A stretch of DNA of 64,000 nucleotides from Ardenticatenaceae bacterium (GTDB taxonomy: Bacteria > Chloroflexota > Anaerolineae > Promineifilales > Promineifilaceae). The stretch is taken from NCBI GenBank assembly GCA_020634455.1, contig JACKBQ010000002.1:856606-920605 (forward strand), written 5' to 3'. Below the pieces are notes generated by a model. That model was not told the DNA's origin, ran no database searches, and saw only the letters and a list, made by a program, of their open reading frames with translations. A program made the translations under genes and the position numbers. Below are positions 32,661 to 59,291 of this stretch, piece after piece (position 1 is the stretch's first letter; each line of letters begins with the position of its first letter).

Positions 32661-34046
32661 TTATCGTGGGGTCAACGTCATCAACAGCTGCCCTTTGGGG
32701 CGCAGGGTGATGAGCGGTTCTAGTTCCACCTGCGTGCCGGGGAGCAGCGTTAGCCGGTAGCGCTGCACGATGGCGGCCAGCAGCAAAATCGCTTCTGTCA
32801 TGGCGAAGCTGTTGCCGATGCAAATGCGTGGCCCACCGCCAAAGGGCAGGTAGGCGTAACGCGGCCGTTCGGCTTTGCGCTCTGGCGTAAACCGTTGCGG
32901 ATCAAATCGCTCTGGTTCGTCCCAAAATTCCGGGTGGCGGTGGGTAACGTAGGAACTCATGGTGATGACTGAATTTTTAGGGACATAAAAGCCGCCAACT
33001 TCATCTTCGTCGTTGCCCCAGCGGGCCAGGGCGTAGGCGGGTGGGTAGAGCCGCATACTTTCTTCGATGACCATCGTGGTGTAGGTAAGGTTGGGTACGT
33101 CGTCAATGGTGGGCAAACGGCCGTTTAACACCGCATCTACCTCCGCTTCCAGTTCCGCCAACAGTTCCGGGTGTTCAGATAGCAGGTAAAAGGTCCAGGC
33201 CAGGGAAACGGCCGTTGTTTCGTGGCCGGCCAGCATGATGGTCATTACCTCGTCGTGGAGCTGCTGGTCGCTCATGCCTTCGCCAGTTTCTTCATCGCGG
33301 GCGGCCATGAGCATACCGAGCAAATCTTCACTTTCCAGCCCCGATTTGCGCCGCTCCTGGATGATGCTGTGGACGACCTGGGTGAGTACGGCCGTATGCT
33401 TGTTTATCCGTCGTGAGCTGGGCAAGAATGGAATTTTGAGACCAATATCGGCAAAAGGGATGCCGGTAAGCCGGGCAATTTCCTCGTTGACGGCCGAAAA
33501 AGAACCTCCCACTGTGTCGGCTTCCCGCGTTAAATCAATGCTGAACAACGTTTTGCCCACAATTTCCAGCGTCAGGTGCATCATGGCGGCGTTGATGTCG
33601 AGGGGACGGCCGTCTTTGGCCAGCGTGTGCCAGTTTTCCAGCATCGAATCGGCTGCGGCCGTCATGGTGGTGGCAAAGTCAGCAATGCGCTTGCGGTGAA
33701 AGGCAGGCGATGCCAGCCGCCGCTGCCGCCGCCAAAAATCGCCGTCACTCGTGAGCAGGCCATTGCCTATTACGGGGCGCAGCAGGCTTAGCGACGGGTG
33801 TGGCATTTTGGTGTAGTTGCGGTTGTTGTCCTGCAAAATCTGCTTGTAATGGTCGGGATGGAAGAACAGGTAGCCATAAAAATTAAACGCCGCACGAAAG
33901 CGAATCGCATCGCCAAATTCATGAAACATTGCCATCATCGTGCGCAGCGGATCATCTTGAAACTGTTTGAGAACGCCCTGGGGCCATTGACCCATCGGGC
34001 CAGGGGGGTGGGGCAGGTGCACCTGCCGGTTTTGTACGGTTGTCAT
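32661..34046 (-). CDS. cytochrome P450
   Basis: Heme-thiolate loop FGGGPRICIGNSFA, ExxR (EESMR), I-helix AGHETT. 461 aa. Confidence 0.93.
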   Translation of the reverse strand: MTTVQNRQVHLPHPPGPMGQWPQGVLKQFQDDPLRTMMAMFHEFGDAIRFRAAFNFYGYLFFHPDHYKQILQDNNRNYTKMPHPSLSLLRPVIGNGLLTSDGDFWRRQRRLASPAFHRKRIADFATTMTAAADSMLENWHTLAKDGRPLDINAAMMHLTLEIVGKTLFSIDLTREADTVGGSFSAVNEEIARLTGIPFADIGLKIPFLPSSRRINKHTAVLTQVVHSIIQERRKSGLESEDLLGMLMAARDEETGEGMSDQQLHDEVMTIMLAGHETTAVSLAWTFYLLSEHPELLAELEAEVDAVLNGRLPTIDDVPNLTYTTMVIEESMRLYPPAYALARWGNDEDEVGGFYVPKNSVITMSSYVTHRHPEFWDEPERFDPQRFTPERKAERPRYAYLPFGGGPRICIGNSFAMTEAILLLAAIVQRYRLTLLPGTQVELEPLITLRPKGQLLMTLTPR

Positions 34047-34807: not shown

Positions 34808-35608
34808 TTAGCAACTCTTGAGTATGGTGAGCATCTGGTCGTGAATACGGCCGTTACTCACCACCAACGACATCTTCCGCACCATCTCCACCGGGGAGCC
34901 ATCGGTAAAGGTAACTTTGCCCCCCGCTTCTTCCGCAATCAGGCGGGCTGCCGCCATGTCCCAGCAGTACAGCTTGAACTCCCAATACCCGTCCAGCCGA
35001 CCAGCGGCTACGTAGGCCATGTCCAGCGCCGCCGAACCGGGTCGCCGGATGCCCTGTGCCGCCCGCAGAAACGCCGCCACTTGCCGCACGTTGTTGTCGT
35101 CACTGGTTTGGCGGTCGTAGGGAAAGCCGGTGGCCAGCAGGCTGCTAACCAGTTCGGTTTCGGTGGAGACGTGGAGCTGCTGTTTGCTGCCATCGTTTTT
35201 TGTTAGAAATGCGCCTTGATGGGAAACGGCCGTAAACAACTCCCCCCGCGTCGGATCAAACAACACGCCCAGCAGCGGTTTTTCCCCCTCGTACAAGGCA
35301 ATCGAGACGCAAAAGATGGGGAAGCCGTGCGCAAAATTGTTGGTGCCGTCCAGCGGGTCCACGTACCAGGTGTAGCCCGCTGTGCCCGCGTCGTCGGTGC
35401 CTTCTTCGCCGATGAAGCCGTGGTTGGGATACTCCGCCCGCAAGCGCGAGAAGATCAGCTCCTCGGCAGCTTTGTCGTACTGCGTCACCCAATCCACCGC
35501 CGAACTTTTGCGCTCGATATTTTTTTGCTGGCTAAATCCGTCTAAAAGCAGCTGCCCGGCTTCCCTGGCAATAGCAACGGCCGTTGCCAGCCCATCTTCC
35601 AAATTCAT
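34808..35608 (-). CDS. inositol monophosphatase family phosphatase (SuhB/ImpA-like)
   Basis: Motifs WYVDPLDGTNNFAHG and WDMAAARLIAEEAGG. Confidence 0.88.
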   Translation of the reverse strand: MNLEDGLATAVAIAREAGQLLLDGFSQQKNIERKSSAVDWVTQYDKAAEELIFSRLRAEYPNHGFIGEEGTDDAGTAGYTWYVDPLDGTNNFAHGFPIFCVSIALYEGEKPLLGVLFDPTRGELFTAVSHQGAFLTKNDGSKQQLHVSTETELVSSLLATGFPYDRQTSDDNNVRQVAAFLRAAQGIRRPGSAALDMAYVAAGRLDGYWEFKLYCWDMAAARLIAEEAGGKVTFTDGSPVEMVRKMSLVVSNGRIHDQMLTILKSC

Positions 35609-35623
35609 AAAACCTTCCTAAAA

Positions 35624-35706
35624 CACCCTCACCCCAGCCCTCTCCCTCAAAGGGAGAGGGAGCAAAAGTCCCCTCCCCCTCGCAGGGGGAGGGCTAGGGT
35701 GGGGGT
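35624..35706 (-). repeat. GGGAGAGGG-type hairpin element, long copy, after the ptsI stop
   Basis: CACCCTCACCCCAGCCCTCTCCCTCAAAGGGAGAGGG AGCAAAAGTCCCCTCCCCCTCGCAGGGGGAGGG CTAGGGTGGGGGT. Same termini as 190-238, with a second internal hairpin (CCCTCCCCC/GGGGGAGGG). Confidence 0.7.
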
Positions 35707-35712
35707 AAATTT

Positions 35713-37446
35713 TCATTCCATTTCGCTGACTTTTTCTTCCAGATACGCCTTCACTTCTTTGGCGGTGGCCAGCTCCAGCACGTGGGCTGCCAGACCGTGA
35801 CACGCCACCCGGCTGCAGCGACGCAACATCGCCTTCACCGCCGGAATCGCTGCTGGAGCCATGCTGAATTCGTCCAATCCTAACCCCAACAGCAGCGGCG
35901 CAGCCAGCGGATCGCCTGCAAACTCGCCGCAAAGTCCCACCCATTTGCCATGCTTGTGGGCGTTAAAAATGGTGGTGGCGATGAGATTCAGCACGGCGGG
36001 ATGATAGGGCGTGGCCAACGGTGCGACTCGTTCGTTGGTACGGTCCACCGCCAGTGTATATTGGGTCAAATCGTTGGTGCCGATGCTAAAGAAATCCACA
36101 TAGTTTGAAAAATGGGGTACTTGTAAAGCGGCCGCTGGAATTTCTACCATAATGCCAAATTGCAATTTTTCTGGCACTGGTATGCCTTCATCGTGTAGGT
36201 CGGTACGCGCTTGATCCAGCATGGCGCGGGCCTGCTTCACTTCGTCAATGTTGGATACCATTGGCACCATGATGCGCAGGTCGGTGGGCTGGCTGGTGGC
36301 CCCAGCGGCACGCAGCAGGGCGCGGAACTGATGGTACAGTACGTCGGGGCGCTCATCCATCATGCGGATGGCGCGCCAGCCCAAAAATGGATTTGGCTCA
36401 GCGGTGAAGCCGAGGTAGCTGACGGCTTTGTCGCCACCGATGTCCAGAGTGCGCACGACCAACGGCCGTTCCCCCATAATCTCGAAAATTTCCTGGTAAG
36501 CGGCCGTTTGTTCATCCTCACCCGGCATACTGTCCCGATCTAAGTAAAGGAATTCGGTGCGGAACAGCCCCACGCCCTCCGCGCCGTAGGTGAGCGCGGT
36601 TTGGGCGTCGGCCGCACCACCAATGTTGGCCACTACTTCTACTTGATGGCCGTCGGTGGTAACGGCCGTTTCCAAGGCCGCCTGTAACGCCACATCCTGT
36701 TGTCGCTGCCAGGCTGCCTGGGCAGATTTTGCCTGCTGTAAAGTCGCTTCATCAGGATTGAGCGTCACCTGACCCGTGCTGCCATCCAAAATGAGCGTGG
36801 ATTTGCCATCAATGAGTGCCAGCGGCAGCGGCAGACTGACAATGGCCGGAATGCCCAGGCTGCGGGCCAAAATGGCGGTGTGGCTGGTGGGGCCGCCGCG
36901 CACGGTGGCCAGCGCCAGCAGCCGATCTTTGGGAAACTGCACTGTGTCGGACGGTGTGAGATCATCGGCCAAAACAATGACAGGTCGGTTGGGAAAATCA
37001 GCATGATCATCAGCGATGCCCATCAGGCAGCGGATAATGCGCTGTCCCACATCGCGCACGTCTACGGCACGGGCCTGAAAATATTCATCTTCTACAGCTA
37101 AAAGCGCCTCGGCGTACTGCTCAATCGCCTGGGAAACGGCCGCTTCTGCATTCAACTGTTCCCCTTCAACCATCATTTCGATGCTTTCAATCAGGTCAGG
37201 GTCTTGCAAAAAAAGCTGGTGAGCTTCAAAAATGGCCGCTTCTTCGTAGCCGATCGTTTCCAGCGTGTGCTTTTCCAACGCTTGCAGCTGGGATTCGGCC
37301 GTTTTGAGGGCATCGTGAAAACGTTTAATCTCTTCCAAAGGATTGGCAATGGTGTGGCTGGCGACGGCAACGGCCGTTGGCGCATACACCCACACAGACC
37401 CAATGGCAATCCCCGGCGAGGCGGGCAAACCAGTAAACTGTTTCAT
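35713..37446 (-). CDS. ptsI: phosphoenolpyruvate-protein phosphotransferase (PTS Enzyme I)
   Basis: Phospho-His motif GGPTSHTAILARSLGIPA, FFSIGTNDLTQY, and a PEP-utilising C-terminal barrel. ATG 37446 lies after GAGGAAG (the track start is GTG 37452). Confidence 0.95.
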   Translation of the reverse strand: MKQFTGLPASPGIAIGSVWVYAPTAVAVASHTIANPLEEIKRFHDALKTAESQLQALEKHTLETIGYEEAAIFEAHQLFLQDPDLIESIEMMVEGEQLNAEAAVSQAIEQYAEALLAVEDEYFQARAVDVRDVGQRIIRCLMGIADDHADFPNRPVIVLADDLTPSDTVQFPKDRLLALATVRGGPTSHTAILARSLGIPAIVSLPLPLALIDGKSTLILDGSTGQVTLNPDEATLQQAKSAQAAWQRQQDVALQAALETAVTTDGHQVEVVANIGGAADAQTALTYGAEGVGLFRTEFLYLDRDSMPGEDEQTAAYQEIFEIMGERPLVVRTLDIGGDKAVSYLGFTAEPNPFLGWRAIRMMDERPDVLYHQFRALLRAAGATSQPTDLRIMVPMVSNIDEVKQARAMLDQARTDLHDEGIPVPEKLQFGIMVEIPAAALQVPHFSNYVDFFSIGTNDLTQYTLAVDRTNERVAPLATPYHPAVLNLIATTIFNAHKHGKWVGLCGEFAGDPLAAPLLLGLGLDEFSMAPAAIPAVKAMLRRCSRVACHGLAAHVLELATAKEVKAYLEEKVSEME

Positions 37447-37471
37447 ACACACTTCCTCTAATTCTTAAACT

Positions 37472-37533
37472 ATCCGCAGATTACGCAGATTCTCGCAGAT
37501 TTTTTTAGTTTTAATCTGCGTTACTCTGCGGAT
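37472..37533 (-). repeat. CGCAGAT-word hairpin between E2 and ptsI
   Basis: ATCCGCAGATTACGCAGATTCTCGCAGAT, T-rich loop, AATCTGCGTTACTCTGCGGAT. The arms are 2-3 tandem 9-10-nt words. Confidence 0.75.
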
Positions 37534-37537
37534 AAAT

Positions 37538-38836
37538 TCATAAACTTAACAGGGCAGGCTGCTCGACGACGCGGCGCAGGTCGGCCAGGAATTGGGCGGC
37601 GACGGCACCGTCCACCAACCGATGATCCACTGACAGGGTGAAGGTGCAGATGGGGCGCAGCACGGGCTGGTCGTTGGCGTTGGGCACAAAGCGGCGGCTG
37701 GTCTGGCCCACGGCCAAAATGCCCACCTGCGGCGGATTGATGATAGCGGCAAAGCGATCCACGCCAAACATGCCCAGGTTGGAAATGGTGAACGTGCCGT
37801 TTTGCAAATCGGCCGGACGCAGCTTGTTTTCCCGCGCCCGCTTCGCCACGTCACGAATTTCCGCCGACAGCATCTCAATTCCCTTGCGGTTAGCCTGCTG
37901 CACCACGGGCACGATGAGGCCATCCGGCAGGGCCACAGCAATGCCCAGGTTCACCTCGTTAAATTGCAGCCATTCGCCGTCGCCGATGTGGCTGTTGACC
38001 AGCGGATGGCGCAGCAGCGTCCAGGCAACCATTTTGGCGAGTACGGCCGTTACCGTCACCACTTTCTCCCCCTTGTGCATCAACTCGTTGGCCTGATCGG
38101 TTAGCTGCAAAACGGCCGTCATTTCCACATCAATCTGGAACGGCACATGCGGTGCGTTGAGCTTGCTCTGCTGCATGTTGTGGGCGATGGTGCGGCGCAT
38201 GTTGCTGAAGGTGTGGCGGGTGAAAGCGGCCGTTTCCGGTTCTGGTAATTTGGCGGCGGGAACGATGTCCGCTTTGTTGGCAATTGCTTCAGCGACATCT
38301 TTTTGCTGGATACGGCCGTCTGGCCCACTGCCCAGCACCGTTTTGAGCGACAGTTCGTGCTCAGCCGCCAGCCGTCGTGCCGCGGGCGTTGCCTGAATTT
38401 TGGAACGGCCGTTGCTTAGCACAGGCGCCGCGGGTGTTGGGGCAGGCAAAGCTTCCGGCTTCGCCTCCACATCCTTGCGAGTGATGCGCCCGCCGGGGCC
38501 GCTGCCCTGAATCTGGCGCACGTCAATCCCCTCCGCCTCGGCAATGCGGGCGGCAACGGGGGTGATGGCGGGAGCGGTTTTCTGGGGTAATGTTTCTCCT
38601 GGGGCGAGGATGGTGGCGAGAACGGCCGTAACCGGCACCATATCCCCTTCCTGGTAGCGCAGGCCCGCCAAAATGCCATCGGCCGTGGCTTCAACTTCCA
38701 TGTTCACCTTGTCGGTGGTCACTTCGGCAATCGGGTCACCGGTTTCCACGGTGTCGCCCTCCTGCACCAGCCAGGCCACCAACTGCGATTCTTCCAGCGT
38801 GAACCCAAACTTGGGCAAAATTATTTCTGTAGCCAT
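37538..38836 (-). CDS. 2-oxoacid dehydrogenase E2 (dihydrolipoamide acyltransferase)
   Basis: Lipoyl domain EVTTDKVNMEVEA, peripheral subunit-binding domain TPAARRLAAEHELSL, catalytic DHRLVDG. Confidence 0.93.
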   Translation of the reverse strand: MATEIILPKFGFTLEESQLVAWLVQEGDTVETGDPIAEVTTDKVNMEVEATADGILAGLRYQEGDMVPVTAVLATILAPGETLPQKTAPAITPVAARIAEAEGIDVRQIQGSGPGGRITRKDVEAKPEALPAPTPAAPVLSNGRSKIQATPAARRLAAEHELSLKTVLGSGPDGRIQQKDVAEAIANKADIVPAAKLPEPETAAFTRHTFSNMRRTIAHNMQQSKLNAPHVPFQIDVEMTAVLQLTDQANELMHKGEKVVTVTAVLAKMVAWTLLRHPLVNSHIGDGEWLQFNEVNLGIAVALPDGLIVPVVQQANRKGIEMLSAEIRDVAKRARENKLRPADLQNGTFTISNLGMFGVDRFAAIINPPQVGILAVGQTSRRFVPNANDQPVLRPICTFTLSVDHRLVDGAVAAQFLADLRRVVEQPALLSL

Positions 38837-38853
38837 TCAAACATCCTACACCT

Positions 38854-38932
38854 GTCATTCTGAGCGCAGCGAAGAATCCCAAACAAGCTACAAGAGAGAT
38901 TCTTCATTGCGCTGCGCTTCATTCAGAATGAC
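38854..38932 (-). repeat. GTCATTCTGAGCGCAGCGAAGAATC-type imperfect hairpin in the E1beta-E2 spacer
   Basis: GTCATTCTGA..GCGCAGCG..AAGAATC (38854-38878) pairs with GATTCTTC..CGCTGCGC..TCAGAATGAC (38898-32), with bulges. Confidence 0.65.
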
Positions 38933-38940
38933 GATTTAAA

Positions 38941-39015
38941 AAAGCGGAACACAGAGCGACACAGAGGTTCACAGAGAGTCAAAAAATCTGCGTCAATCTG
39001 CGAAATCTGCGGATT
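38941..39015 (-). repeat. CGCAGAT/CACAGAG word-repeat element beginning at the E1beta stop codon
   Basis: Its reverse complement AATCCGCAGATTTCGCAGATTGACGCAGATTTTTTGACTCTCTGTGAACCTCTGTGTCGCTCTGTGTTCCGCTTTTTT aligns with 8905-8985. Confidence 0.75.
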
Positions 39016-40000
39016 AATATTTCCAGCTAACGAGCTTGCGCGCTTCCTCGACGATTTTGTCCACCTGCGGCACCGTGTGGTGCTCCAAATTGCGGTTGTA
39101 CGGGATGGGAATGTCCAGACCGGCCAGACGGCGCACCGGGGCGTCCAGGTAGCCAAACGCCTCACTTTCCACAATGCGGCTCACCAATTCGCCGCCAAAG
39201 CCGCCTGTTTTGACCGCCTCATGCACTACCAACGCCTTGCCCGTCTTCTTCACCGATTCCACAATTGGCCCTTCGTCCAGCGGATTGAGCGTGCGTGGGT
39301 CTACCACTTCCAGCTCGATCCCCTCCTGCGCCAGAATTTCGGCCGCTTCCAGGGTCCGATTCACCATGATGGAGGTGGCCACGACGGTTAAATCTTTGCC
39401 TTCGCGCACGACGTTGCTTTGGCTTAGCGGCACTTTGTACATCTCTTCCGGCACGTGCCCTTTGGTGCGGTAAAGCAGCTTGTGCTCCACAAAAATAACC
39501 GGATTGTCGTCGTCAATGGCGGCCAGCAGCAGCCCTTTGGCATCGTACGGCGAGCTGGGCATGACCACCTTGAGGCCGGGCACATGGACAAACCAGTTTT
39601 CTAGCGTTTCTGAATGCTGGGCGGCGGCACCGGTACCAGAGCCACCGGGCATACGCAGCACCATCGGCACGGTGGCCTTGCCGCCAAACATGAAGCGAAT
39701 TTTGGCCGCTTGCAGCACCAGCTGCTCCATGCTCAGCGTCACAAAATCCATGAACTGAATCTCGCCCACGGGTCGCATTCCGGTGATGGCCGCGCCGACG
39801 CAAGCTCCGGCAATGGCTGCCTCGGAGATGGGGGTGTCAATAATTCGCTCTGCGCCAAACTGATCGATGAGGCCAGCCGAGACGCCAAACGCACCGCCAT
39901 AAACACCAATATCTTCGCCAAGCATAAAAACGCGCTCATCGGCGGCCATTTTTTGCTGCAATGCTTCGCGCAACGCTTCCATATAAGTTAACTCACGCAT
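39014..40000 (-). CDS. 2-oxoacid dehydrogenase E1 component, beta subunit
   Basis: [14 protein letters not shown]..., transketolase-like Pyr and C-terminal domains ([26 protein letters not shown]). ATG at 40000 overlaps the E1alpha stop by 8 nt (the track ORF extends to 40051). Confidence 0.92.
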
Positions 40001-40985
40001 AAACGCCCTCCATGATGCTGCTGAGTTCTGGTTCCGGGCTGGCTTTGGCAAACTCTACCGACGCTTCGATGATTTCCTGGGCTTCAGCCAGTAAGGTTTC
40101 CCGTAGCTCGTCGTTGAGGCCAAGCTGGCTGGCAAAGCGGCGGATGGGATCGCGATCTTGCCACTCTTTTACCTCGTCGCGGGTGCGGTATGCCTGGCGG
40201 TCGCTTTTGGAGTGGCCCCGGTAGCGGTAGGTTAGGGCTTCGATGAGGGTGGGGCCATCCCCGGCGCGGGCCCGTTCAACAGCTTCTGCAACGGCGGCCT
40301 GTACCGCCAGCACATCATTGCCATCCACCGTAACGCCGGGAATGCCGTAGGCACAACCGCGCTGGCTGATGCGCTCGATGTTGACGGCGCGTTCCACGGC
40401 CATGGACATGGCGTACTGGTTGTTTTCGCAGAGGTAGATGATGGGCAACTGCCAGATGCTGGCCATGTTGAGCGATTCGTGGAATGCGCCTTCGTTGGAA
40501 GCGCCATCGCCAAAAACCACCGCGCCGACCTGGTTGGTTTTGCGCAGCTTGATGCTCAGGCCGACGCCCACGGCGATGGGCAGCCCACCCGCCACGATGC
40601 CGTTGGCTCCCAAATTGTTGGCTTCGACGTCGGCAATGTGCATGGAGCCGCCGCGCCCGCGGCAGTAGCCTGCTTCGCGCCCCAAAAATTCGGCCATCAT
40701 GCGGTCTGGGGTGCTGCCCCAGGCGAGGCAATGGCCGTGGCCGCGATGGGTGTTGAGCAGGTAATCGCTGGGGGCAAGGGCGGAGGAGAGGCCAACGGCC
40801 GTTGCTTCCTGCCCAATGGAAAGATGCATGGTGCCATGCACTTGCCCTAGCGCGTACAGGGCTTCGGCTTTCTCTTCAAAAGCGCGAATGACCATCATGG
40901 TTTTGAGCATTTGTAGATGTTCTTCTCTGCTTTGGCCGTTTTGTTGGGAAACGGCCGTTTGCTTTTCTGTTTGTTTTTCTGTCAT
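39993..40985 (-). CDS. 2-oxoacid dehydrogenase E1 component, alpha subunit (TPP-dependent)
   Basis: [12 protein letters not shown] and the TPP motif [20 protein letters not shown] 40985 follows GAGGGAG (the track start is 41021). Confidence 0.92.
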
Positions 40986-41093
40986 AAACACTCCCTCTTT
41001 TGCGCTTCGGCATTTTGCCAACCGAAACTACGGGCACAGCCTGCCACGCTGAACCAGGATTGAGTTATCCAATTGAAAACAGTCAGGATGTTG

Positions 41094-41732
41094 TCAGTGG
41101 GTTGACGCCAGGATGATTTCACACATCCGATTAACAGTCTCGGTAAACGCGATAGCTTCTTCTAGACTGTTTGCCCAGGTGAGCAGGCCAACATTTGGCA
41201 CCAGCAGCACCTGGTTATGCGCGGCTACCTGCGCGATTTGATCCGCTTCTGCCAGACAACTAGCAAAATGGCCAACGCTGCCTGCTACGGCAGACAGGAC
41301 GTTCATGTTTAAAAGTTCTGGCTGGTTGGCGACGGCCGTTCCTGCCACCGGTTGGCTCAATAAAATTGCTTTGGCTGGTGTATTTTTGTAAATGATACGA
41401 TGCCATTCCGCCTGGGCGGGCAGTTGGTCAGAGGTGAGCTGCCAATTTTCATTGAGCGCGGCTACAGCCAGGTTTGTTTCTTCGATATTGGCGAACCAGG
41501 TGTGAACGGCCGTAATGGCAAACTTATTCCCCGGTACGCGCTGGCTGGCTTCGGCCAAAATGCCCACCGCCAGCTGCCGCTCGGCCGCCAACTTGGCTAA
41601 CTGTACAAACGACTTGCGCACACCACGTGGCAAAACTGCATCCCGCAGCCGATTGTTCATGCCCCGTTGGGCATTGACCCTGTTTACCAGGCTGTTGGTG
41701 AGATGTTTGTACGTTTCTAGCATGACTGCCAT
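41094..41732 (-). CDS. class II aldolase/adducin-fold protein lacking the canonical zinc-binding histidines
   Basis: By eye, the fold-level pattern aligns with FucA/AraD (...AEWHRIIYKNTPAKAILLSQPVAGTAVAN... and ...NQVLLVPNVGLLTWANSLEEAIAFTETVNRMCEI). The H-x-H and later His positions read S-Q-P and N/V. Confidence 0.6.
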   Translation of the reverse strand: MAVMLETYKHLTNSLVNRVNAQRGMNNRLRDAVLPRGVRKSFVQLAKLAAERQLAVGILAEASQRVPGNKFAITAVHTWFANIEETNLAVAALNENWQLTSDQLPAQAEWHRIIYKNTPAKAILLSQPVAGTAVANQPELLNMNVLSAVAGSVGHFASCLAEADQIAQVAAHNQVLLVPNVGLLTWANSLEEAIAFTETVNRMCEIILASTH

Positions 41733-41738
41733 TGTCTA

Positions 41739-41792
41739 GACCCCAAGGGTTTTTACTGAAAAATGTTTCCACTGGTGGAAACCCTTGGGGTC
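41739..41792 (-). other. intercistronic 14-bp-stem hairpin between the oxidoreductase and aldolase-fold genes
   Basis: GACCCCAAGGGTTT (41739-41752) pairs perfectly with AAACCCTTGGGGTC (41779-41792). On the minus strand the loop holds a small GTTTCC/GGAAAC hairpin followed by ATTTTT. Confidence 0.6.
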
Positions 41793-41795
41793 TTC

Positions 41796-43094
41796 TTATG
41801 CAACCATCTTATCTTGCTCGGCGCGAAGGCGGGTAATGACTTGGCCTTCCTTAAGCTCTACGTCACTGTAGCGAACCGGCTCACCCATCGAGACATCTTT
41901 TATCAAGGTGGCGCCCACGGCTAAACCGAGTGGCAAAATGTTCTCATCCTTGGCGGTGTCGGCTCGATCGATCATGCCATAGACGGTGTATCCACCCAGG
42001 GCATCAATTTGCTCGCCCGCTTTTAAGTTACGCTTGGCAACGGTGATTGTTTCTGCCACGGGCGCACGATCCTGGAGCAGTGTGGCTCGTTGATCCAGCA
42101 CCACATTGGCCACCGTGATGGGTGTTTCCAAATTGGCCAGGTGATACGGCCGATATAATGCCCAGAACTTGCCATTGCCGTTGAGCCGCAAATAGTTCAA
42201 ATCTTGAATAATCTTTGGCTGATCCGTGGTGATGATGACAAATACACCAGGAGCCACGTTGCCGACAGCGTAATCTACTTTGCGCAAGCCGCTAAAAATG
42301 CCGCCATGCTCTTTGGGTATGAAGGTGTCGGCCAATTGGGCCACCGTAACGTCTGGCCCGTGTGCACCCCGCACATCTGGTGCATAGCCCACAGCGTTGC
42401 CAATGGAGGTCATTTCCACCATTGTTTTGGTGCCATCCTCGAATGAGGCGAGCATTTTGGGGCTCATTTTTTGCCGTTTGGCTTTTTCGGCGGTGGTGTC
42501 TGGATTTGATGTCCGCTTGAGCGGATTATTTTTTCCTTTGCCGATGGCTACAATTTCAAAGCCCAGCGCGTCGGCAAAGTCGTAAATTTCTTTGATGGAA
42601 CCTGGTTCATCCCCTGCCGCCAGGGAATAAACGACCCCGTGCTTTGCGGCCAGGTGGGTTAAATAGTAGCCAACCGTTGCGTCTGCTTCGACATTCATAT
42701 TGACGATATGTTTACCGCCCAAAATGGCAGCTTCGCAAACATAGGCACCGATTTCGGGGATGCCGGTGGCTTCGACGATAACATCCAGGTTTTTGAGGTT
42801 GACGAGGGTTTCGGCTGAGCGTGTGCCCACGCGACCCCCATCCAAAATGGCTTGATCCCCTTTGTCAATTTGATCGTCAATGACGGTAACGGCCGTTTCT
42901 GCCACACTGGATTCTACATAAGCAGCTTTGGCCCGATCAGGCACCACATCTGCGACGGCGGCCACATAAATGCCGTCCATTTTTTCCATTTGGCTAATCA
43001 TTCCGGTGCCCATTTGGCCTGCGCCAACGAGCCCAACACGAATGGGATTACCGTTCGCTGCGCGTACCCGCAGCCGATCTCGTAAGGTATGCAT
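41796..43094 (-). CDS. NAD(P)-binding oxidoreductase with C-terminal SAF domain (homoserine-dehydrogenase-like, COG4091-type)
   Basis: Rossmann motif RVGLVGAGQMGTGM and a C-terminal SAF-like segment VAKRNLKAGEQIDALGGYTVYG...GEPVRYSDVEL. 432 aa. Confidence 0.7.
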   Translation of the reverse strand: MHTLRDRLRVRAANGNPIRVGLVGAGQMGTGMISQMEKMDGIYVAAVADVVPDRAKAAYVESSVAETAVTVIDDQIDKGDQAILDGGRVGTRSAETLVNLKNLDVIVEATGIPEIGAYVCEAAILGGKHIVNMNVEADATVGYYLTHLAAKHGVVYSLAAGDEPGSIKEIYDFADALGFEIVAIGKGKNNPLKRTSNPDTTAEKAKRQKMSPKMLASFEDGTKTMVEMTSIGNAVGYAPDVRGAHGPDVTVAQLADTFIPKEHGGIFSGLRKVDYAVGNVAPGVFVIITTDQPKIIQDLNYLRLNGNGKFWALYRPYHLANLETPITVANVVLDQRATLLQDRAPVAETITVAKRNLKAGEQIDALGGYTVYGMIDRADTAKDENILPLGLAVGATLIKDVSMGEPVRYSDVELKEGQVITRLRAEQDKMVA

Positions 43095-43133
43095 GATATT
43101 TATTTAAAATTTTCCTTCTTGCTTACTTCAAAA

Positions 43134-43502
43134 TTATGATTCTTTGGAAAACAGCTTGATGGCTGAACCAATGGCGACGGGGGGTAACGGCCGTTCCTCT
43201 ACGCATACATCCCCCGGCATTTCCACTTCGGTTTCTCCATTAAACTTAAGCACAAGATGCCCTAAATTTTTGAAATTGTCGTTAGCGACCTCGCCAACTG
43301 CCAAAATGGAAAACTGTTCATCGTTAATTTGGATGACATCGCCAACTTCAACAGGCGCATGCACCGTTTTACCATCATGAATGACGGAAAACTCAATTAA
43401 CTCATCTGGTGCATTCTCACCAAACAGCACAATAATATTGTGGTCCAAGAACTCTTGTGTAAAAGGACCAATCGTTGTGACTTTCGCCTCAAATTTTACC
43501 AT
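43134..43502 (-). CDS. srlB: PTS glucitol/sorbitol-family EIIA component
   Basis: MVKFEAKVTTIGPF...VGEVANDNFKNLGHLVLKFNGETEVEMPGDV... parallels E. coli SrlB (VGSVAEDNLRELGHVTLRFDG). ATG 43502 lies 1 nt after the EIIB stop (the track ORF extends to 43613). Confidence 0.88.
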   Translation of the reverse strand: MVKFEAKVTTIGPFTQEFLDHNIIVLFGENAPDELIEFSVIHDGKTVHAPVEVGDVIQINDEQFSILAVGEVANDNFKNLGHLVLKFNGETEVEMPGDVCVEERPLPPVAIGSAIKLFSKES

Positions 43503-43503
43503 T

Positions 43504-44061
43504 TTAGCCACCAAACAGGCGGGAAAAGAACCCTTTCTTTTGCTTTGGTTCTTCTTTATCAGCTGGTTTTTGTTCTGGCTGATCCTTTTTTGCCGTTCCA
43601 GTAAGTTCTTCACGATAAACTGACTTCATCGTTTCAGCCATTTTAGTGGCAGGATCAGATGCCGTAGCCGGAGGTGTGTCTCCCTCAACCAGCTTGATAT
43701 CATCTACCGTTACACCAGATACAAAAATGTCTTCTTTAATAAAGCGGAACAGCGGGCCAGACGGTTTTGTTGCGTGAATATCTACAGTCATCACCCCCTT
43801 CATGGGGTAGACGCCCACACGGGCTGTGCCACCGCAATCAATAACGGCAACGGCCAATTGCTCAAATTCACGCTTTGATGAAAAACCATCAAATGCCTCG
43901 CCACCGGTCAGGTCAGCAATACGCTGGGCGACGGGATGGATACCACCACCTGTGACGCAGTAGATGTACGGCTTCTTTTCAGTCGGTTCGATGATTAGGG
44001 GGCCTCCCCAACCACGCTTTCCGGCGGATATTTTCACGGCACGGTATTGATTTTCTGACAT
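43504..44061 (-). CDS. PTS glucitol-family EIIB domain protein (N-terminal half of SrlE as a separate polypeptide)
   Basis: GKRGWGGPLIIEP, CVTGGGIHPVAQRIADLTGGEAFDGF, AVIDCGGTARVGVYP and SGPLFRFIKEDIFVSGV match SrlE residues ~1-125. Lys/Glu/Pro-rich tail. AAGGAAGG RBS before ATG 44061. Confidence 0.88.
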   Translation of the reverse strand: MSENQYRAVKISAGKRGWGGPLIIEPTEKKPYIYCVTGGGIHPVAQRIADLTGGEAFDGFSSKREFEQLAVAVIDCGGTARVGVYPMKGVMTVDIHATKPSGPLFRFIKEDIFVSGVTVDDIKLVEGDTPPATASDPATKMAETMKSVYREELTGTAKKDQPEQKPADKEEPKQKKGFFSRLFGG

Positions 44062-44224
44062 TATTACCTTCCTTGTAAGTTTCTTAGCGTCACGTAAGGA
44101 TTGCCGCAGGTGGCTAGCCATCTGCAAGCAATTGTTCTAGTATTCACAATTGAATTACTGGGGATAAGGATAGAGGGTCACGCCAATAACGCTCTATCCC
44201 TACCCCTTCTTCATTTATGACAGT

Positions 44225-44767
44225 CTATGCGTACAGACCAATGCTGGCGATGAACGCCAAAATTACAGCAACAGGGCCAGTGATCAGACGGGAGAAAAGG
44301 ATGGCGGGAACGCCAATTTCTACCGTTTCTGGTTCTGCTTCACCAAGCGCCAAGCCTACCGGGATGAAGTCGCAACCAACTTGTGGGTTGATAGCAAACA
44401 GGGCGGGCAAAGCGTAGCTGGGCGGGATGGAGCCATTGGCGATGAGGGTGGAGCCTAACAGCGTACCCACGACCTGAGCGATGACTGCACCGGGGCCGAG
44501 CAGCGGGGACAAAACCGGGATGGCGCAGATCAGGGAGATAATGATCAAACCAACCAGGCTGCCAGCCATTGGGGCCAAGAGATTGGCAATCCAGTCACCG
44601 ATACCGGTCTTGAGGATGATACCAATGACCAGGGCGATGAACGCCATGAACGGCAGAATGTTAACAATGACCTGGTCAATTGCTTCACGACCAGCTTGAT
44701 AGAGAGCACCTACGACGCCGCCGACGCTCCGACCAATTCTTTCCAGAAATTTGTTAATACCTTGCAT
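44225..44767 (-). CDS. PTS glucitol-family EIIC2 membrane domain (C-terminal half of SrlE as a separate polypeptide)
   Basis: ILPFMAFIALVIGII..GIGDWIANLLAP...LSPLLGPGAVIAQVVG...LPALFAINPQVGCDFIPVGL closely parallels E. coli SrlE residues ~150-319. AAGGAGG RBS. Confidence 0.9.
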   Translation of the reverse strand: MQGINKFLERIGRSVGGVVGALYQAGREAIDQVIVNILPFMAFIALVIGIILKTGIGDWIANLLAPMAGSLVGLIIISLICAIPVLSPLLGPGAVIAQVVGTLLGSTLIANGSIPPSYALPALFAINPQVGCDFIPVGLALGEAEPETVEIGVPAILFSRLITGPVAVILAFIASIGLYA

Positions 44768-44785
44768 TTTTCTTCCTCCTTAAAA

Positions 44786-45337
44786 TTAGGCGGTGGCGGC
44801 AGCCGTGTCGGATGCGCGTGCCCACATAACGGCCGTAATCCGTTCCGTGACAATACCGCGAATGAAGATGACAACCAGACCAACCAGCAAGTAACGAACA
44901 GCCAGCGGTACCACAGAGAGACCTTGGGCTTCGATACCAGCAGCGATACCTAACCAGACGAACAATTCACCGGGGTTGATGTGGGGGAAGATGCCTGTCG
45001 GTGGATGTACGTAGGAAACGGCCGCATCGTAAAACGCTGGTTTGTACTTTTCTGGTAGGAACCGACCCATGGTGTAAGCCATTGGGTTGGTGAGGAAGAA
45101 ACATGACAAGAAAGGCAGCAAAATGTAGCGTACCGGATAATAAACGAGACCATCGCGGGCTGCCCACTCGCCAACTTTGTCAATGCGGTCGGCACCAATG
45201 AGGGCGATAAGTGCATTTACAAAAGTGAGCAAGATGATGAGCAGGGGAATAATGCCCGTTGTCAGGCCAACAAAAACCTCTGCGCCTTGTTGAAATAGGC
45301 CGATGAACCATTCAGCGGCAGCAACTAAAGCATCCAT
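44786..45337 (-). CDS. srlA: PTS glucitol-family EIIC component
   Basis: 183-aa membrane protein with the SrlA pattern (AEWFIGLFQQGAEVFVGLTTGIIP...NPMAYTMGRFLPEKYKPAFYDA...HINPGELF). AAGGAGG RBS. Confidence 0.88.
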   Translation of the reverse strand: MDALVAAAEWFIGLFQQGAEVFVGLTTGIIPLLIILLTFVNALIALIGADRIDKVGEWAARDGLVYYPVRYILLPFLSCFFLTNPMAYTMGRFLPEKYKPAFYDAAVSYVHPPTGIFPHINPGELFVWLGIAAGIEAQGLSVVPLAVRYLLVGLVVIFIRGIVTERITAVMWARASDTAAATA

Positions 45338-45520
45338 AATGGAAATACCTCCTTAACACTCCTTGAAAACAAAAATAATTAAAAACGTTTCTCTTCCAAA
45401 ATAAGACTTGTGTTGAGTTAACCACCTCCTTGTTTAGAATTCACCAAACGTCAAGATACTGAAACTGAGGGTCGAATGTGCTTCGGGCGTCTCTTCCTTA
45501 AAGATTGGTGTTGGGAAATC

Positions 45521-45967
45521 TTAAGCAGGTTCCAACCTGGGGGATGTTGGTACCGCTTCTGATTGACTTTCTTTTCCTTGTCGCGCGGCCAAAAGGTCGC
45601 GGCCTGCATTGCCAAAGGCAATGCGTAGCTTGGGGGTTGTGGGAAGACTGTCTTCATTGTCTAATAGCTCTTGCAGCGGCATGCCTATAAGTTCCGGCAC
45701 AGGACGTAGTCTGGCAAAGACAGTCCAACCTTTAAACTGTTCGGCATGAACGATGATGTTGTTATCATCAATGGTGATGACGGCGTAGGCGCGTCCTTTG
45801 TACTGACCGCCACCCTGACCAACGGCCGTTAACCCACCTTTGCGCACCACTTTGAGACGGCCGTAAAATCGCTTCATCTGCAAATAAGCCATGCCAAACT
45901 GGGCAATCCACATTACCGCCAGGGCAATAAAGATAAACAGTGCATTCTCGGCAATTACATCAAACAT
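45521..45967 (-). CDS. gutM: glucitol operon activator GutM-like protein
   Basis: N-terminal TM helix, and ...FKGWTVFARLRP... paralleling E. coli GutM FMKGLTVFARPQ. GAGGAG RBS. Confidence 0.75.
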   Translation of the reverse strand: MFDVIAENALFIFIALAVMWIAQFGMAYLQMKRFYGRLKVVRKGGLTAVGQGGGQYKGRAYAVITIDDNNIIVHAEQFKGWTVFARLRPVPELIGMPLQELLDNEDSLPTTPKLRIAFGNAGRDLLAARQGKESQSEAVPTSPRLEPA

Positions 45968-46008
45968 AAGACGTTCTCCTCTATCCAGGCTATCAGCAAA
46001 CAGATGGA

Positions 46009-46299
46009 TTAGGCTTCAGGTTCTGAGCCTTCTTCAAAATTGCGCTCAACCAATGCCTGAAGCGCGGCCACGGCTTCATTTGCCTGTGGTCCAGTGGCGC
46101 TAATGGTTATTTCATGCCCTTGCAAGACTGCCAGCAGCATCAGTTTGAGTGGGCTGGTGCCATTGGCTGGCCCTTTTTCGCGGGTTAGATTTGTCACCTC
46201 AACGGTGGCATCATATTGACGGGCAAGTTTAACAAACTGCGCGAGTGGGCGTGCATGTAAACCAGCCTCGTGCTGAACAGTCAGAGTCGTTTCAGCCAT
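46009..46299 (-). CDS. ptsH: phosphocarrier protein HPr
   Basis: Active-site GLHARPLAQFV (His15 equivalent), a Ser46-region equivalent (GTSPLKLMLL), and ITISATGPQANEAV. Confidence 0.9.
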   Translation of the reverse strand: MAETTLTVQHEAGLHARPLAQFVKLARQYDATVEVTNLTREKGPANGTSPLKLMLLAVLQGHEITISATGPQANEAVAALQALVERNFEEGSEPEA

Positions 46300-46386
46300 G
46301 GTCGTATCCTATTTACTTGATGAATTTACTTATGAACGGCCGTTTCTCTTCCCGTACTGTTCCCAATGTTGGAAACAATCTGCCGG

Positions 46387-47382
46387 TTACTGCTTACTGA
46401 GTAACAGGACTTCTTCGGCCGCAGTGCTATCGGTGATTAGGACGTCTATAAAGCCGCCGCGCAGCGCCCCTAAAATTGCAGGCGCTTTCATTTTTCCGGC
46501 GGCAACGCCAATTATTTTGCAAGGTGACTTTTTTAATTTTGCCAATTCAACGCCAATAATGCGGTTATGAATGCTCAGGTCTAGAATCTTCCCATTGATA
46601 TTGTAATGGGTAACACAAATGTCCCCTACCGCGCCTTGCGCTTTTAAGATTTCCAGGTCTTTCGTATCCAAATAACCTGCCCGGAGCATACTGGAGCGTT
46701 CTGGAACCACACTGCCAATGCCAACTAGCGCATAATCCGCATTGAGTGCCATTTCCAGCGTAGCGCTAATGCGCTTTTCTCCCAACAGGGCTCGTCGGCC
46801 AATCTGATCACTTACCAGCAGCGGGGCATCCAAAGCATGGTGTTGCCCGCCTAAATTATTGGCGATGGTGCGTACAACTTCAGAACCGTCAATTTCGGGG
46901 TCGCCATAGCCCAAAGAGCCAATCATTTGCACCACATGCAACCCGGACCGGCTGCGTGGTTGCAGCGCTTGGGCAACTTCGTGGGCAGCTGTGCCCCAAG
47001 AAACCCCAAGGACTGCGCCATCTGGTAGTTCCTCGGTTAAAAAGTTGGCACCGAGTTTGCCAACCAGCCGCAAGGTCTTTTGGTAGTTGAGCATACCCCG
47101 GTGTGCCACACGAACGTCCAGCAAATTAAAGCAGGAACGCAATTTTTGCTCCAGGGTGTATAAACGCTCTAGGGGGTGTTTAATTGAGATTTCAACAATG
47201 CCTTGGTCGCGGGCTTCGGTAAGAAGGCGGGAGATGGCCGAACGAGAGTAGCCAAACCGGCCGGCGATTTGGGCCTGACTCATTCCTTCCATATAGTAAA
47301 GATCGGCTACAGTTGCTAAGAACTGCATTCTTTCTTGACCAGGCATTGCGCTAACTTCTTCTCCAAAAAGGTTTGCAGACAA
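46387..47382 (-). CDS. SorC/DeoR(CggR)-family sugar-binding transcriptional regulator
   Basis: N-terminal HTH VADLYYMEGMSQAQIAGRFGYSRSAISRLLTEARDQGIVEI plus a C-terminal sugar-phosphate-binding domain. Start ambiguous (TTG 47382, ATG 47346 or 47328). Confidence 0.85.
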   Translation of the reverse strand: MSANLFGEEVSAMPGQERMQFLATVADLYYMEGMSQAQIAGRFGYSRSAISRLLTEARDQGIVEISIKHPLERLYTLEQKLRSCFNLLDVRVAHRGMLNYQKTLRLVGKLGANFLTEELPDGAVLGVSWGTAAHEVAQALQPRSRSGLHVVQMIGSLGYGDPEIDGSEVVRTIANNLGGQHHALDAPLLVSDQIGRRALLGEKRISATLEMALNADYALVGIGSVVPERSSMLRAGYLDTKDLEILKAQGAVGDICVTHYNINGKILDLSIHNRIIGVELAKLKKSPCKIIGVAAGKMKAPAILGALRGGFIDVLITDSTAAEEVLLLSKQ

Positions 47383-58871: not shown

Positions 58872-59291
58872 CGAGCGTATTTTTGAATGCAGTAAATACG
58901 TTCGTCTTACAAAAGGGGTGCCACTCTAAAAATTTTGTTAGTACTGAGCCAGAAAGTGTCAGATGAAATGATATCGGACAACTTAAATTAAGATTATGTA
59001 AGTTAAACTAGGCGCATTATAACAATTACTTTTCATAAGATCAAATATAAATCAACATAATGATCAAAACAAGGGTAGGTGATTTGTGCTATACGAATTT
59101 TGATCGTCTATCGTAACCCGGTATTGATTTTGGCTGGGGCGTAAAAGATGTTTTGGGCAAAATATTTGAATTGCAGAGGGTTTAGCGGTAAGGCAATAAC
59201 TGGTATGATTGTGTTGTAACTTTTTGTAGACATTACATTTGTCCCAAAAATCGCACGGTAAGAATATCCTTTAGAAAGGTTGTGTAAAGAA

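Follow-up and report, generated by a model that had tools for sequence, protein, structure and literature searches.

A phosphotransferase-linked polyol operon of Chloroflexota containing a type II reductoisomerase of 1-deoxy-D-xylulose 5-phosphate and an acetoin dehydrogenase-like complex: a candidate route for the catabolism of 2-C-methyl-D-erythritol

The glucitol operon srlAEBD-gutM-srlR-gutQ of Escherichia coli and Salmonella (TC 4.A.4), which couples a gut-family phosphotransferase system (PTS) to the sorbitol-6-phosphate dehydrogenase SrlD, an enzyme of the short-chain dehydrogenase/reductase (SDR) type, is the closest described relative of the import genes considered here. These genes lie in a block on the minus strand (34808-47382) of a 64,000-nucleotide stretch of the genome of an Ardenticatenaceae bacterium (contig JACKBQ010000002.1, positions 856,606 to 920,605; this whole stretch is referred to below as the window), in which they are joined to an oxidoreductase and to the E1 and E2 components of a dehydrogenase complex. 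The block shares SrlA, the SrlE domains, SrlB, GutM and the IIB cysteine motif with the glucitol operon, but it differs from it in lacking SrlD and GutQ, in having a SorC-type regulator in place of the DeoR-type SrlR, in carrying HPr and Enzyme I (EI) inside the operon, and in its downstream enzymes, which are a type II reductoisomerase (DXR-II) for DXP (1-deoxy-D-xylulose 5-phosphate) and the E1/E2 complex. Judged by its gene content, the block is not a canonical glucitol operon, since it has neither SrlD nor GutQ. The best explanation proposed here, judged about as likely as not, is that the operon serves to break down 2-C-methyl-D-erythritol (ME) or a very close analogue, and the evidence on both sides is set out below.

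Two enzymes that depend on thiamine pyrophosphate (TPP) provide the chemical comparison for the E1/E2 genes. The acetoin dehydrogenases AcoA/AcoB/AcoC(/AcoL) of organisms such as Bacillus subtilis, Pelobacter carbinolicus and Clostridium magnum convert an alpha-hydroxyketone to acetyl-coenzyme A (acetyl-CoA) and an aldehyde, work in anaerobes, and are built, as in the window, from a heterotetrameric TPP-dependent E1alpha/beta and a lipoyl E2. DXP (CH3-CO-CHOH-CHOH-CH2OP) is, like acetoin, an alpha-hydroxyketone, and the phosphorylated acyloin DXP is the substrate proposed below for the window complex, in which case the aldehyde product would be glyceraldehyde 3-phosphate (GAP). The window cluster differs further from the acetoin system in having no E3 (AcoL) and in having a PTS and SorC instead of AcoR/sigma-54. 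The second enzyme, DXP synthase (DXS), involves the same C2-C3 bond of DXP, the same cofactor and the same hydroxyethyl-TPP intermediate as are proposed for the window E1; DXS is, however, a single-chain, non-oxidative carboligase fed by the decarboxylation of pyruvate, whereas the window encodes a two-subunit E1 with a lipoyl E2, and cleavage by such a complex would be oxidative and irreversible.

The oxidoreductase is to be compared with DXR-like enzyme (DRL), which is another name for DXR-II. In Brucella abortus this enzyme (BAB2_0264, PDB 3UPL/3UPY) replaces DXR-I in isoprenoid biosynthesis, whereas the window protein, which belongs to the same fold family, aligns with it over its full length and has identical diagnostic residues, sits in an operon of PTS and dehydrogenase genes. 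True DXR-II enzymes have been distinguished from DLO1 and DLO2, sister families that lack DXR activity (Carretero-Paulet et al. 2013, PMC3847144), and according to a 2026 review the distribution of DXR-II is still without a defining pattern (PMC13001223).

Gene calls based on the listing of open reading frames (ORFs) and on Pfam and NCBIfam scans of the window give 14 genes, all on the minus strand (Table 1). An earlier description of the block, made from the letters of the window and here called the sequence-only reading, had given the order from SorC to EI and then the inositol monophosphatase-family phosphatase (IMPase), with all genes co-directional; this is correct gene for gene in the ORF, Pfam and NCBIfam results, and the coordinates agree exactly or within a few codons. 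Its statement that the gaps are short or filled by hairpins also holds, the intergenic gaps measuring 1-183 bp and five of them containing strong hairpins (z -4.1 to -6.1 against shuffled controls), while the gap between GutM and SrlA is unstructured. An SDR-type SrlD (adh_short), which it had likewise reported as missing, was not found in the block, and no recurrent SDR cluster occurs among the 80 related loci described below. Its guess that the host is Chloroflexota-like was right, but its supposition that a complete PTS would be uncommon in that phylum is not supported: dozens of metagenome-assembled genomes (MAGs) of Chloroflexota, as well as Chloroflexus aurantiacus, carry one.

The gut-family EII complex of the window is complete, with strong family matches for SrlA, for the N- and C-terminal domains of SrlE and for SrlB. 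SrlE is split into two genes in which the IIC half precedes the IIB half, whereas E. coli GutE is a single IIB-IIC polypeptide with the reverse domain order; its phosphorylatable cysteine is Cys71 (PMC13106763). The split, with IIC first, was observed in every gut-PTS locus examined, in Chloroflexota, Spirochaetes, Acidimicrobiia and one Firmicute (including loci L081 and L090; loci are designated by L numbers throughout), and the free-standing IIB bears on the phosphotransfer in trans that has been proposed from a 2026 cryo-EM structure.

The gene after srlB, which had been described only as an NAD/SAF oxidoreductase, almost certainly encodes a true DXR-II. This assignment, made by sequence comparison, follows from its match to PF21135, from its alignment with Brucella DRL 3UPY (E=1e-101 over residues 8-431), and from the retention of all ten diagnostic residues (G121, E174, F178, K191, K193, T229, H250, R320, Y322 and V351, or GEFKKTHRYV as a signature), each identical to its Brucella counterpart. 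These are residues that separate DXR-II from DLO1 and DLO2, bind fosmidomycin or form the dimer (PMC3847144). In representatives of a library of 1.84 billion sequences the signature is kept down to approximately 38% identity, beyond which it breaks down among remoter sequences of the DLO-like kind; the DXR-II representatives of the 50% library lie mostly on contigs of 2-5 kb, which supply little context. Since the oxidoreductase is a DXR-II, the likely substrate of the operon moves from a hexitol or pentitol to ME, and the acyloin to be cleaved becomes DXP. Routine annotation, which offers names such as "FlgA", "homoserine dehydrogenase-like", "SAF domain protein" and "pyruvate dehydrogenase" for the genes of these loci, would need to be corrected.

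The same combination of genes is present in a cultured organism. Contigs that encode the exact C. aurantiacus J-10-fl protein ABY34555.1 carry a co-directional, tightly packed cluster of SorC, E1alpha, E1beta, E2, GutM, SrlA, SrlE-C, SrlE-N, SrlB, DXR-II, HPr and EI. The window DXR-II is 58% identical to the Chloroflexus orthologue of locus L049, which clustering at 90% groups with ABY34555.1. The J-10-fl enzyme is active, as it complements an E. coli dxr mutant, although both Chloroflexus strains use the mevalonate pathway only and lack the enzymes of the MEP pathway (MEP, 2-C-methyl-D-erythritol 4-phosphate; PMC3847144); the authors of that study offered no explanation for an active DXR-II in Chloroflexus. 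Because the mevalonate pathway is the only isoprenoid route and the enzyme is nevertheless active, DXR-II has no biosynthetic use in C. aurantiacus, and because this active enzyme is embedded, without an MEP pathway, in an operon for sugar alcohol import, a catabolic role can be argued. The question could be tested directly in C. aurantiacus J-10-fl, where the genes are approximately Caur_1325-1336. Neither MEP nor mevalonate pathway genes were found in the 64-kb window.

The gene families, motifs and conserved linkage are observed directly, and it is from these that the substrates and the direction of each of the following steps are inferred. In the proposed pathway, EI and HPr would relay phosphate from phosphoenolpyruvate (PEP) to the gut EII proteins (SrlB, SrlE-N as the IIB half, and SrlA with SrlE-C as the IIC half), which would take in ME and release MEP. 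The precedent for this import is the sorbitol PTS of Salmonella, which reportedly takes up ME, going by the title of a 2004 paper by Testa, Cornish and Poulter, and ME is considered somewhat more likely than not to be the substrate. A sorbitol PTS is also encoded by lmo0542-0544 of Listeria; going by accession arithmetic, the Listeria DXR-II listed in PMC3847144 (NP_464074.1) would presumably lie beside these genes.

In the second step, DXR-II, of which the family assignment is the observed part, would run backwards, yielding DXP and NADPH at the expense of MEP and NADP+. This catabolic direction is proposed because DXR-II sits in a PTS/dehydrogenase operon and Chloroflexus has no MEP pathway. 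The equilibrium of the DXR reaction favours MEP, so an irreversible step would be needed after DXR-II. By analogy with acetoin dehydrogenase, the TPP-dependent E1alpha/beta would supply it by cutting DXP between C2 and C3, freeing GAP and passing the two-carbon unit to the lipoyl arm of E2 and from there to CoA as acetyl-CoA, with an E3 encoded elsewhere reoxidizing the lipoamide. This chemistry would be that of DXS in reverse, except that it would end in an irreversible oxidation, by which the preceding step, listed as reversible (PMC13001223), would be drawn forward. SorC and GutM would regulate the operon, and the IMPase would act as an accessory sugar-phosphate phosphatase. The net reaction would be ME + PEP + NADP+ + NAD+ + CoA -> pyruvate + NADPH + NADH + acetyl-CoA + GAP. 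Whether the complex in fact cleaves DXP is judged to be an even question. The sequence of events outlined by the sequence-only reading, in which a polyol phosphate delivered by the PTS is oxidized by the SAF oxidoreductase and then processed by an acetoin dehydrogenase-like E1/E2 to an acyl-CoA, is thus the best supported logic, although the reading missed that the oxidoreductase is a DXR-II. No description of ME catabolism, of methyltetrol degradation or of a linkage between DXR-II, a PTS and E1/E2 was found in the literature searched.

The proposal accounts for the missing SrlD, because a route through DXR-II would not need it. A different account of the same absence is that an ordinary polyol, such as sorbitol, mannitol or a pentitol, is what the PTS brings in, and that the DXR-II homologue is a polyol-phosphate dehydrogenase replacing SrlD, with its DXP/MEP activity a side reaction. 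All of the PTS components are annotated as specific for glucitol/sorbitol and score above the NCBIfam cut-offs, some dehydrogenase would indeed be required for a hexitol in the absence of SrlD, and the Acidimicrobiia homologue adjoins MtlD and a PTS of the mannitol type. The window protein nonetheless keeps each of the residues by which DXR-II differs from its relatives without DXR activity, and eleven members of the clade, including the Chloroflexus orthologue, complement dxr (PMC3847144). Moreover, the compounds formed when hexitols or pentitols are oxidized pass straight into glycolysis or the pentose phosphate pathway and would not require E1/E2, yet the E1/E2 genes are found in most loci, a retention which the ME route would explain. 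An ordinary polyol is consequently considered improbable as the substrate.

In order to determine which of these genes belong together, 80 loci around homologues of DXR-II were collected from a scan of a genome collection with the homologue alignment, and were analyzed by tblastn with the window proteins and by unsupervised clustering of ORFs; counts are given for the 37 loci with complete 10-kb flanks (the full-flank set). The 80 loci come from Anaerolineae, Ardenticatenales, Caldilineales, Chloroflexus, Ktedonobacterales, Spirochaetes (Alkalispirochaeta and Salinispira) and Acidimicrobiia. Wherever the genes occur in them, the order SrlA, SrlE-C, SrlE-N, SrlB, DXR-II is invariant. In the full-flank set the gut PTS and SorC are each present in 31/37 loci, GutM in 29/37, E1alpha with E1beta in 25/37, HPr in 23/37, EI in 22/37, the gene of the aldolase-fold protein in 15/37 and IMPase in 11/37. 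The gut PTS and DXR-II very probably form one functional unit.

The position of the E1/E2 genes is more variable. They lie downstream of DXR-II on the same strand in 15 of the 80 loci, upstream on the same strand in 16, upstream on the opposite strand in six and downstream on the opposite strand in two; they follow EI in L053 and L055, and in L057 there is a fused alpha-beta gene. In all, the same gene sets are found in at least 39 loci of several phyla, with E1/E2 in five layouts: upstream, downstream, on the opposite strand, following EI, or as an alpha-beta fusion. In the Spirochaete and Ktedonobacterales loci the E1/E2 block again stands beside the gut-DXR-II block, and the identity of E1 and of E2 to the window proteins tracks that of DXR-II (r approximately 0.7). 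Because the block is kept through rearrangement and across phyla, the association between E1/E2 and DXR-II is taken to be functional.

If the adjacency in the window were a coincidence of unrelated operons, a boundary might be sought at the terminator-like hairpin after EI, and a scan for promoters found 13 sites where 10.3 were expected, which is not above chance. The recurrence of the same gene sets in at least 39 loci, several phyla and five arrangements, together with overlapping start and stop codons, makes coincidence extremely improbable, and conservation refutes it for practical purposes. An adjacency peculiar to this genome, which the sequence-only reading had named among the grounds for its own refutation, is not what is seen: the same linkage occurs in dozens of genomes, rearranged across phyla.

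Variant loci show DXR-II and E1/E2 together independently of the PTS. Locus L059 (Ardenticatenaceae, 3978-14797) contains no PTS and consists of a PHP-domain protein, a xylose isomerase-like TIM barrel, an SBP_bac_6 binding protein, a fused double permease, an ATPase with a TOBE domain, DXR-II, E1alpha, E1beta and E2, with the stop codon of DXR-II overlapping the start of E1alpha by the ORF coordinates, and L052 (4154-11284) has the same ABC-transporter variant up to DXR-II. Since no kinase is present, the compound transported in L059 and L052 may be already phosphorylated (e.g. MEP or the cyclodiphosphate). In L056 the order is DXR-II, a zinc alcohol dehydrogenase (Zn-ADH), a DeoC-type aldolase, E1alpha, E1beta and E2; in L057 it is SrlB, DXR-II, HPr, the fused E1alpha-beta and E2; and in L084 it is SrlB, DXR-II and E1alpha.

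E1alpha scores below the NCBIfam equivalog cut-off for pyruvate dehydrogenase (PDH; TIGR03182, 376.6 against 393.85), E2 is below every NCBIfam equivalog cut-off (357.3 against 445), and E1beta passes only a PDH subfamily model and has weak similarity to DXS models. The closest solved structure to E1alpha is human PDH E1alpha, at 230 bits. The PGAP name for E1alpha is generic, and the source names of its close homologues are split between PDH and acetoin dehydrogenase, several of them being annotated by JGI as acetoin:DCPIP oxidoreductase; the libraries used include no curated model that separates AcoA from PDH E1alpha. No dedicated E3 (Pyr_redox_2) was found in the window block or the annotated Chloroflexus locus, or with E1/E2 in any locus examined. 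By these profile comparisons the window E1/E2 belongs among the 2-oxoacid/acetoin dehydrogenase complexes and is not a PDH at the equivalog level. C. aurantiacus has further E1/E2 sets (Caur_1972-1974 and others), its E3 genes are located elsewhere, and its genome paper lists Caur_1333-1335 as PDH (PMC3150298).

Several observations weigh against a route from ME through DXP, and they were brought out in part by a reverse check, in which DXR-II was sought within 10 kb of close homologues of E1alpha (74-75% identical). The Thermanaerothrix locus L091 (9031-15754) and L093 (9031-15736) contain SorC, E1alpha, E1beta, E2, EIIA_2, PTS_IIB and EIIC-GAT, and L092 (8928-14091) contains SorC, E1, E2 and IMPase, in each case with no DXR-II within 10 kb, so that SorC-E1-E2 is a module which can occur independently of DXR-II. 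It could be a PDH or acetoin dehydrogenase typical of the lineage, accompanied by a CggR-like regulator. Within the full-flank set, 12 of the 37 loci have DXR-II without E1/E2 nearby. In the Firmicute locus L090 the place of E1/E2 is taken by three alcohol dehydrogenases and a class II aldolase that is intact, in Acidimicrobiia DXR-II adjoins MtlD and a PTS of the mannitol type, and in Peptoniphilaceae it is paired with a flavoprotein, with no PTS. Finally, there is a step in the GC content of third codon positions (GC3) in the window at the 39993-41732 boundary, with values of 0.44-0.61 over the run of genes that begins with SorC and ends with the aldolase-fold protein, and of 0.63-0.73 over the run from E1alpha to IMPase and a cytochrome P450 gene, and this seam fits two modules of different history that were joined secondarily.

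These points are the substance of the strongest competing explanation, according to which the gut PTS and DXR-II are a real unit but E1/E2 is an ordinary PDH or acetoin dehydrogenase under a CggR-like SorC that does not act on the product of DXR-II, while the DXP formed from imported ME goes to thiamin or pyridoxal salvage or is metabolized elsewhere. The SorC-E1alpha/beta-E2 loci without DXR-II in Thermanaerothrix, L093 and L092, the 12 full-flank loci without E1/E2, the GC3 step, the human PDH structure as closest match together with the PDH subfamily model passed by E1beta, and the listing of Caur_1333-1335 as PDH all favour it, as do the thiamin genes near DXR-II in Peptoniphilaceae. It is set against the apparent translational coupling of DXR-II to E1alpha in the PTS-free locus L059, the direct pairing of DXR-II with E1/E2 in L056, L057 and L084, the movement of the E1/E2 block with gut-DXR-II into Spirochaetes and Ktedonobacterales, the scores of E1alpha and E2 below the PDH equivalog cut-offs, the further E1/E2 sets of Chloroflexus, and the lack of an E3 with the block in any locus. 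With these considerations taken together, this explanation is regarded as rather unlikely, though it is the one to be taken most seriously.

The Gat/ascorbate-type PTS (Gat-type below) next to SorC-E1-E2 in L091 and L093 suggests another interpretation of the loci without DXR-II, namely that it is a second PTS entry, possibly for 1-deoxy-D-xylulose. The complex would then receive one intermediate by two routes, 1-deoxy-D-xylulose being converted to DXP by the Gat PTS, and the PTS-free operons favour this over a lineage-typical PDH or acetoin dehydrogenase that is only a neighbour of PTS genes. Gat-type PTS genes also occur in loci with DXR-II, between E2 and GutM in L025, L029 and L040 and elsewhere in L010 and L050. 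The same genes can be read differently: E1/E2 may cleave some other phosphorylated ketose or acyloin (3,4-dihydroxy-2-butanone 4-phosphate or a ketopentose phosphate), supplied chiefly by the Gat-type PTS, with the DXR-II branch feeding in a related but non-identical compound. The placement of the Gat-type IIA/IIB/IIC directly after E2 in L091 and L093, and inside or near the five DXR-II loci just named, is consistent with such a substrate, and the intact aldolase and alcohol dehydrogenases of L090 hint at alternative chemistry. The simplest common intermediate, however, is DXP, since the Gat PTS could phosphorylate 1-deoxy-D-xylulose directly, and an additional isomerase or dehydrogenase is not recurrent among the loci; a different ketose is accordingly thought to be a poor prospect, comparable in this respect to the ordinary polyol.

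Extending the ME route beyond the window, it may be suggested tentatively, as something that falls short of an even prospect, that DXR-II is primarily a catabolic enzyme which works with a "DXP dehydrogenase complex" (E1alpha/beta-E2) in order to feed on the MEP-pathway overflow of neighbouring organisms, with two PTS entries (gut for ME and Gat for 1-deoxyxylulose). On the same speculative footing, the biosynthetic DXR-II of Brucella, Bartonella and others might be a secondary recruitment, which would explain both the patchy distribution of the enzyme and its presence in organisms without an MEP pathway. What appears to be new is the enzymatic back end of this polyol operon linked to a PTS, the Gut PTS family, DXR-II and the 2-oxoacid/acetoin dehydrogenase families being individually known. 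If the proposed route is correct, it would be the first to be described by which an intermediate of the MEP isoprenoid pathway is catabolized, would extend the substrates of the 2-oxoacid/acetoin dehydrogenase complexes by a new class (a phosphorylated acyloin), and would answer the question, open since 2010-2013 and raised again in the 2026 review, of why DXR-II is so scattered and why it is found in bacteria without the MEP pathway. Cross-feeding on metabolites of the ME type would also be implied for the habitats (soda lakes, activated sludge and microbial mats) in which the cluster-bearing Chloroflexota and Spirochaetes live beside phototrophs that use the MEP pathway.

The protein encoded between DXR-II and E1alpha had been listed in the sequence-only reading among the catabolic genes as an aldolase-fold protein, but its metal ligands are gone: the three zinc-ligand histidines seen in PDB 6VOP and in the homologue from L090 are replaced in it (VHTH -> LLSQP and YHG -> NVG). 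Its homologues, which are absent from most loci, occur in 33 of them, always directly after DXR-II, are 22-43% identical to the window protein, and have in common only E61, S63, R65, H111, Y115 and G182. By these alignments the protein is probably non-catalytic and not an aldolase, and it is read here as either a degenerate or repurposed relic of an aldolase-based variant or a non-catalytic partner. An AlphaFold model computed from a 6-sequence alignment has a mean pLDDT of 57, with the N-terminal half below 50, and is too poor for a fold search. The aldolase-based variant is represented by L090, from a Eubacteriales MAG, in which SorC, GutM, SrlA, SrlE-C, SrlE-N, SrlB, DXR-II and Aldolase_II stand in the order of the window, with SrlE split alike; unlike the window it has no E1/E2, and its aldolase keeps the zinc ligands and is flanked by a Zn-ADH, a 2-hydroxyacid dehydrogenase and an iron alcohol dehydrogenase (Fe-ADH), which suggests an aldolase-based downstream route.

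The inclusion of the IMPase gene in the block, made by the sequence-only reading, stands to the extent that the gene is co-directional and follows EI, but a terminator-like hairpin lies between the two, and the gene is found in approximately one third of the full-flank loci. Because this hairpin fits the terminator pattern, the IMPase is possibly transcribed separately. The gene follows EI in L002, L005, L016, L023, L024 and L030, its product is below the HisN and SuhB equivalog cut-offs, and other loci contain NagD-like HAD phosphatases; both kinds of phosphatase suggest a safety valve for sugar phosphates.

Table 1. Genes and intergenic hairpins of the block at 34808-47382, listed in the direction of transcription
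Feature	Position	Strand	Evidence
SorC/DeoR-type regulator (helix-turn-helix + sugar-phosphate-binding domain)	46387..47382	-	PF04198 Sugar-bind 5.8e-65; beside PTS genes in 31/37 full-flank loci
HPr	46009..46299	-	PF00381 8e-26; GLHARP His15 motif intact
GutM-type activator	45521..45967	-	PF06923 3e-20
SrlA, gut-family EIIC1	44786..45337	-	PF03608 EII-GUT 1e-74; NF049923 243.9 against cut-off 150
SrlE C-terminal half (EIIC2), own gene, ahead of IIB gene	44225..44767	-	PF07663 EIIBC-GUT_C 6e-45
Hairpin between SrlE halves	44161..44206	-	Fold of 150-nt gap -51.8 kcal/mol, z -5.2
SrlE N-terminal half (EIIB)	43504..44061	-	PF03612 EIIBC-GUT_N 9e-54; DCGG cysteine motif at residue 75; ATG start 44061
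SrlB, gut-family EIIA	43134..43502	-	PF03829 PTSIIA_gutA 2e-36; ATG start 43502
DXR-II/DRL-family reductoisomerase ("NAD/SAF oxidoreductase")	41796..43094	-	PF21135 DRL_cat 1.5e-60, 204 bits; also SAF PF08666, PF03447
Hairpin between DXR-II and aldolase-fold gene	41738..41793	-	Perfect 15-bp stem; z -5.1
Class-II-aldolase-fold protein without metal ligands	41094..41732	-	PF00596 1.8e-18, 67.5 bits against cut-off 22.2
E1alpha, TPP-dependent dehydrogenase	39993..40985	-	PF00676 1.5e-88; TPP motif; 330-aa form is an exact database match
E1beta	39014..40000	-	PF02779, PF02780; ATG at 40000 overlaps E1alpha stop by 8 nt
Hairpin in E1beta-E2 gap	38850..38999		Stable intergenic hairpin
E2 dihydrolipoyl acyltransferase	37538..38836	-	PF00198 catalytic, PF02817 E3-binding, PF00364 lipoyl; DHRLVDG motif
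Hairpin between E2 and EI	37462..37543	-	z -5.1
Enzyme I (PtsI)	35713..37452	-	TIGR01417 591.3 against cut-off 341.7; GGPTSH motif
Terminator-like hairpin 3' of EI	35625..35706	-	-68.9 kcal/mol, z -6.1; terminator-like site 35693-35671
IMPase-family sugar-phosphate phosphatase	34808..35608	-	PF00459 2e-73; DPLDGT at residue 84

The intergenic hairpins have mutually unrelated sequences and may be processing, stability or attenuation elements. An Rfam scan of 33-49 kb gave nothing at the gathering score and no riboswitch, the chance matches to hairpins being confined to the EI/IMPase hairpin.

Outside the gut-PTS loci, DXR-II was observed in two further contexts. In Acidimicrobiia (L080, 5458-13266; also L075, L076 and L078) the IMPase gene overlaps that of DXR-II, and in L080, the sole locus of this class to have been annotated in detail, a PTS_EIIC gene and a gene of the mannitol dehydrogenase family precede IMPase and DXR-II, and EI comes after them, with no gut PTS. 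In Peptoniphilaceae/Tissierellia (L087, L088, L089 and L094, at approximately 7800-10300) DXR-II overlaps the end of a gene for an HI0933-like flavoprotein, and it precedes ileS in three of these four loci, with no PTS and no E1/E2; genes for thiamin biosynthesis or transport lie within 6-8 kb of DXR-II in two of the four. This group includes genera reported to be without the MEP pathway, and its DXR-II looks like an enzyme with a different role.

A palindromic octamer, ACGGCCGT, is present in 110 copies in the 64 kb, where 1.16 are expected, which amounts to approximately one per 580 bp, whether the sequence is coding or not (for example at 36662, 37370, 38405 and 42889); the next commonest palindromic octamer has six copies. 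It is confined to the closest relatives, with 0.8-1.2 copies per kb in L001, L007 and L054 and a density near zero in the other 77 loci, and it behaves like HIP1 of cyanobacteria, from which it differs in sequence and in its lineage, Chloroflexota. The possibility that the whole block is a horizontally acquired island was considered and rejected, since its flanks are housekeeping genes (rpsF, relA/spoT, sucCD and mnmA) and ACGGCCGT is equally dense inside and outside.

The cytochrome P450 gene of the window (32661-34046) has counterparts no more than a few kb away from the cluster, or from SorC-E1-E2, in several Anaerolineae, namely in L008, in L012 (at the start of the locus), in L091 (3024-4349) and in L093 (2750-4075), and this recurrence could be either plain synteny or a functional link. 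A gene for an XerC/D-like tyrosine recombinase (57939-58871) adjoins the stretch of lowest GC content, 58001-60000 (0.42, against a window mean of 0.535).

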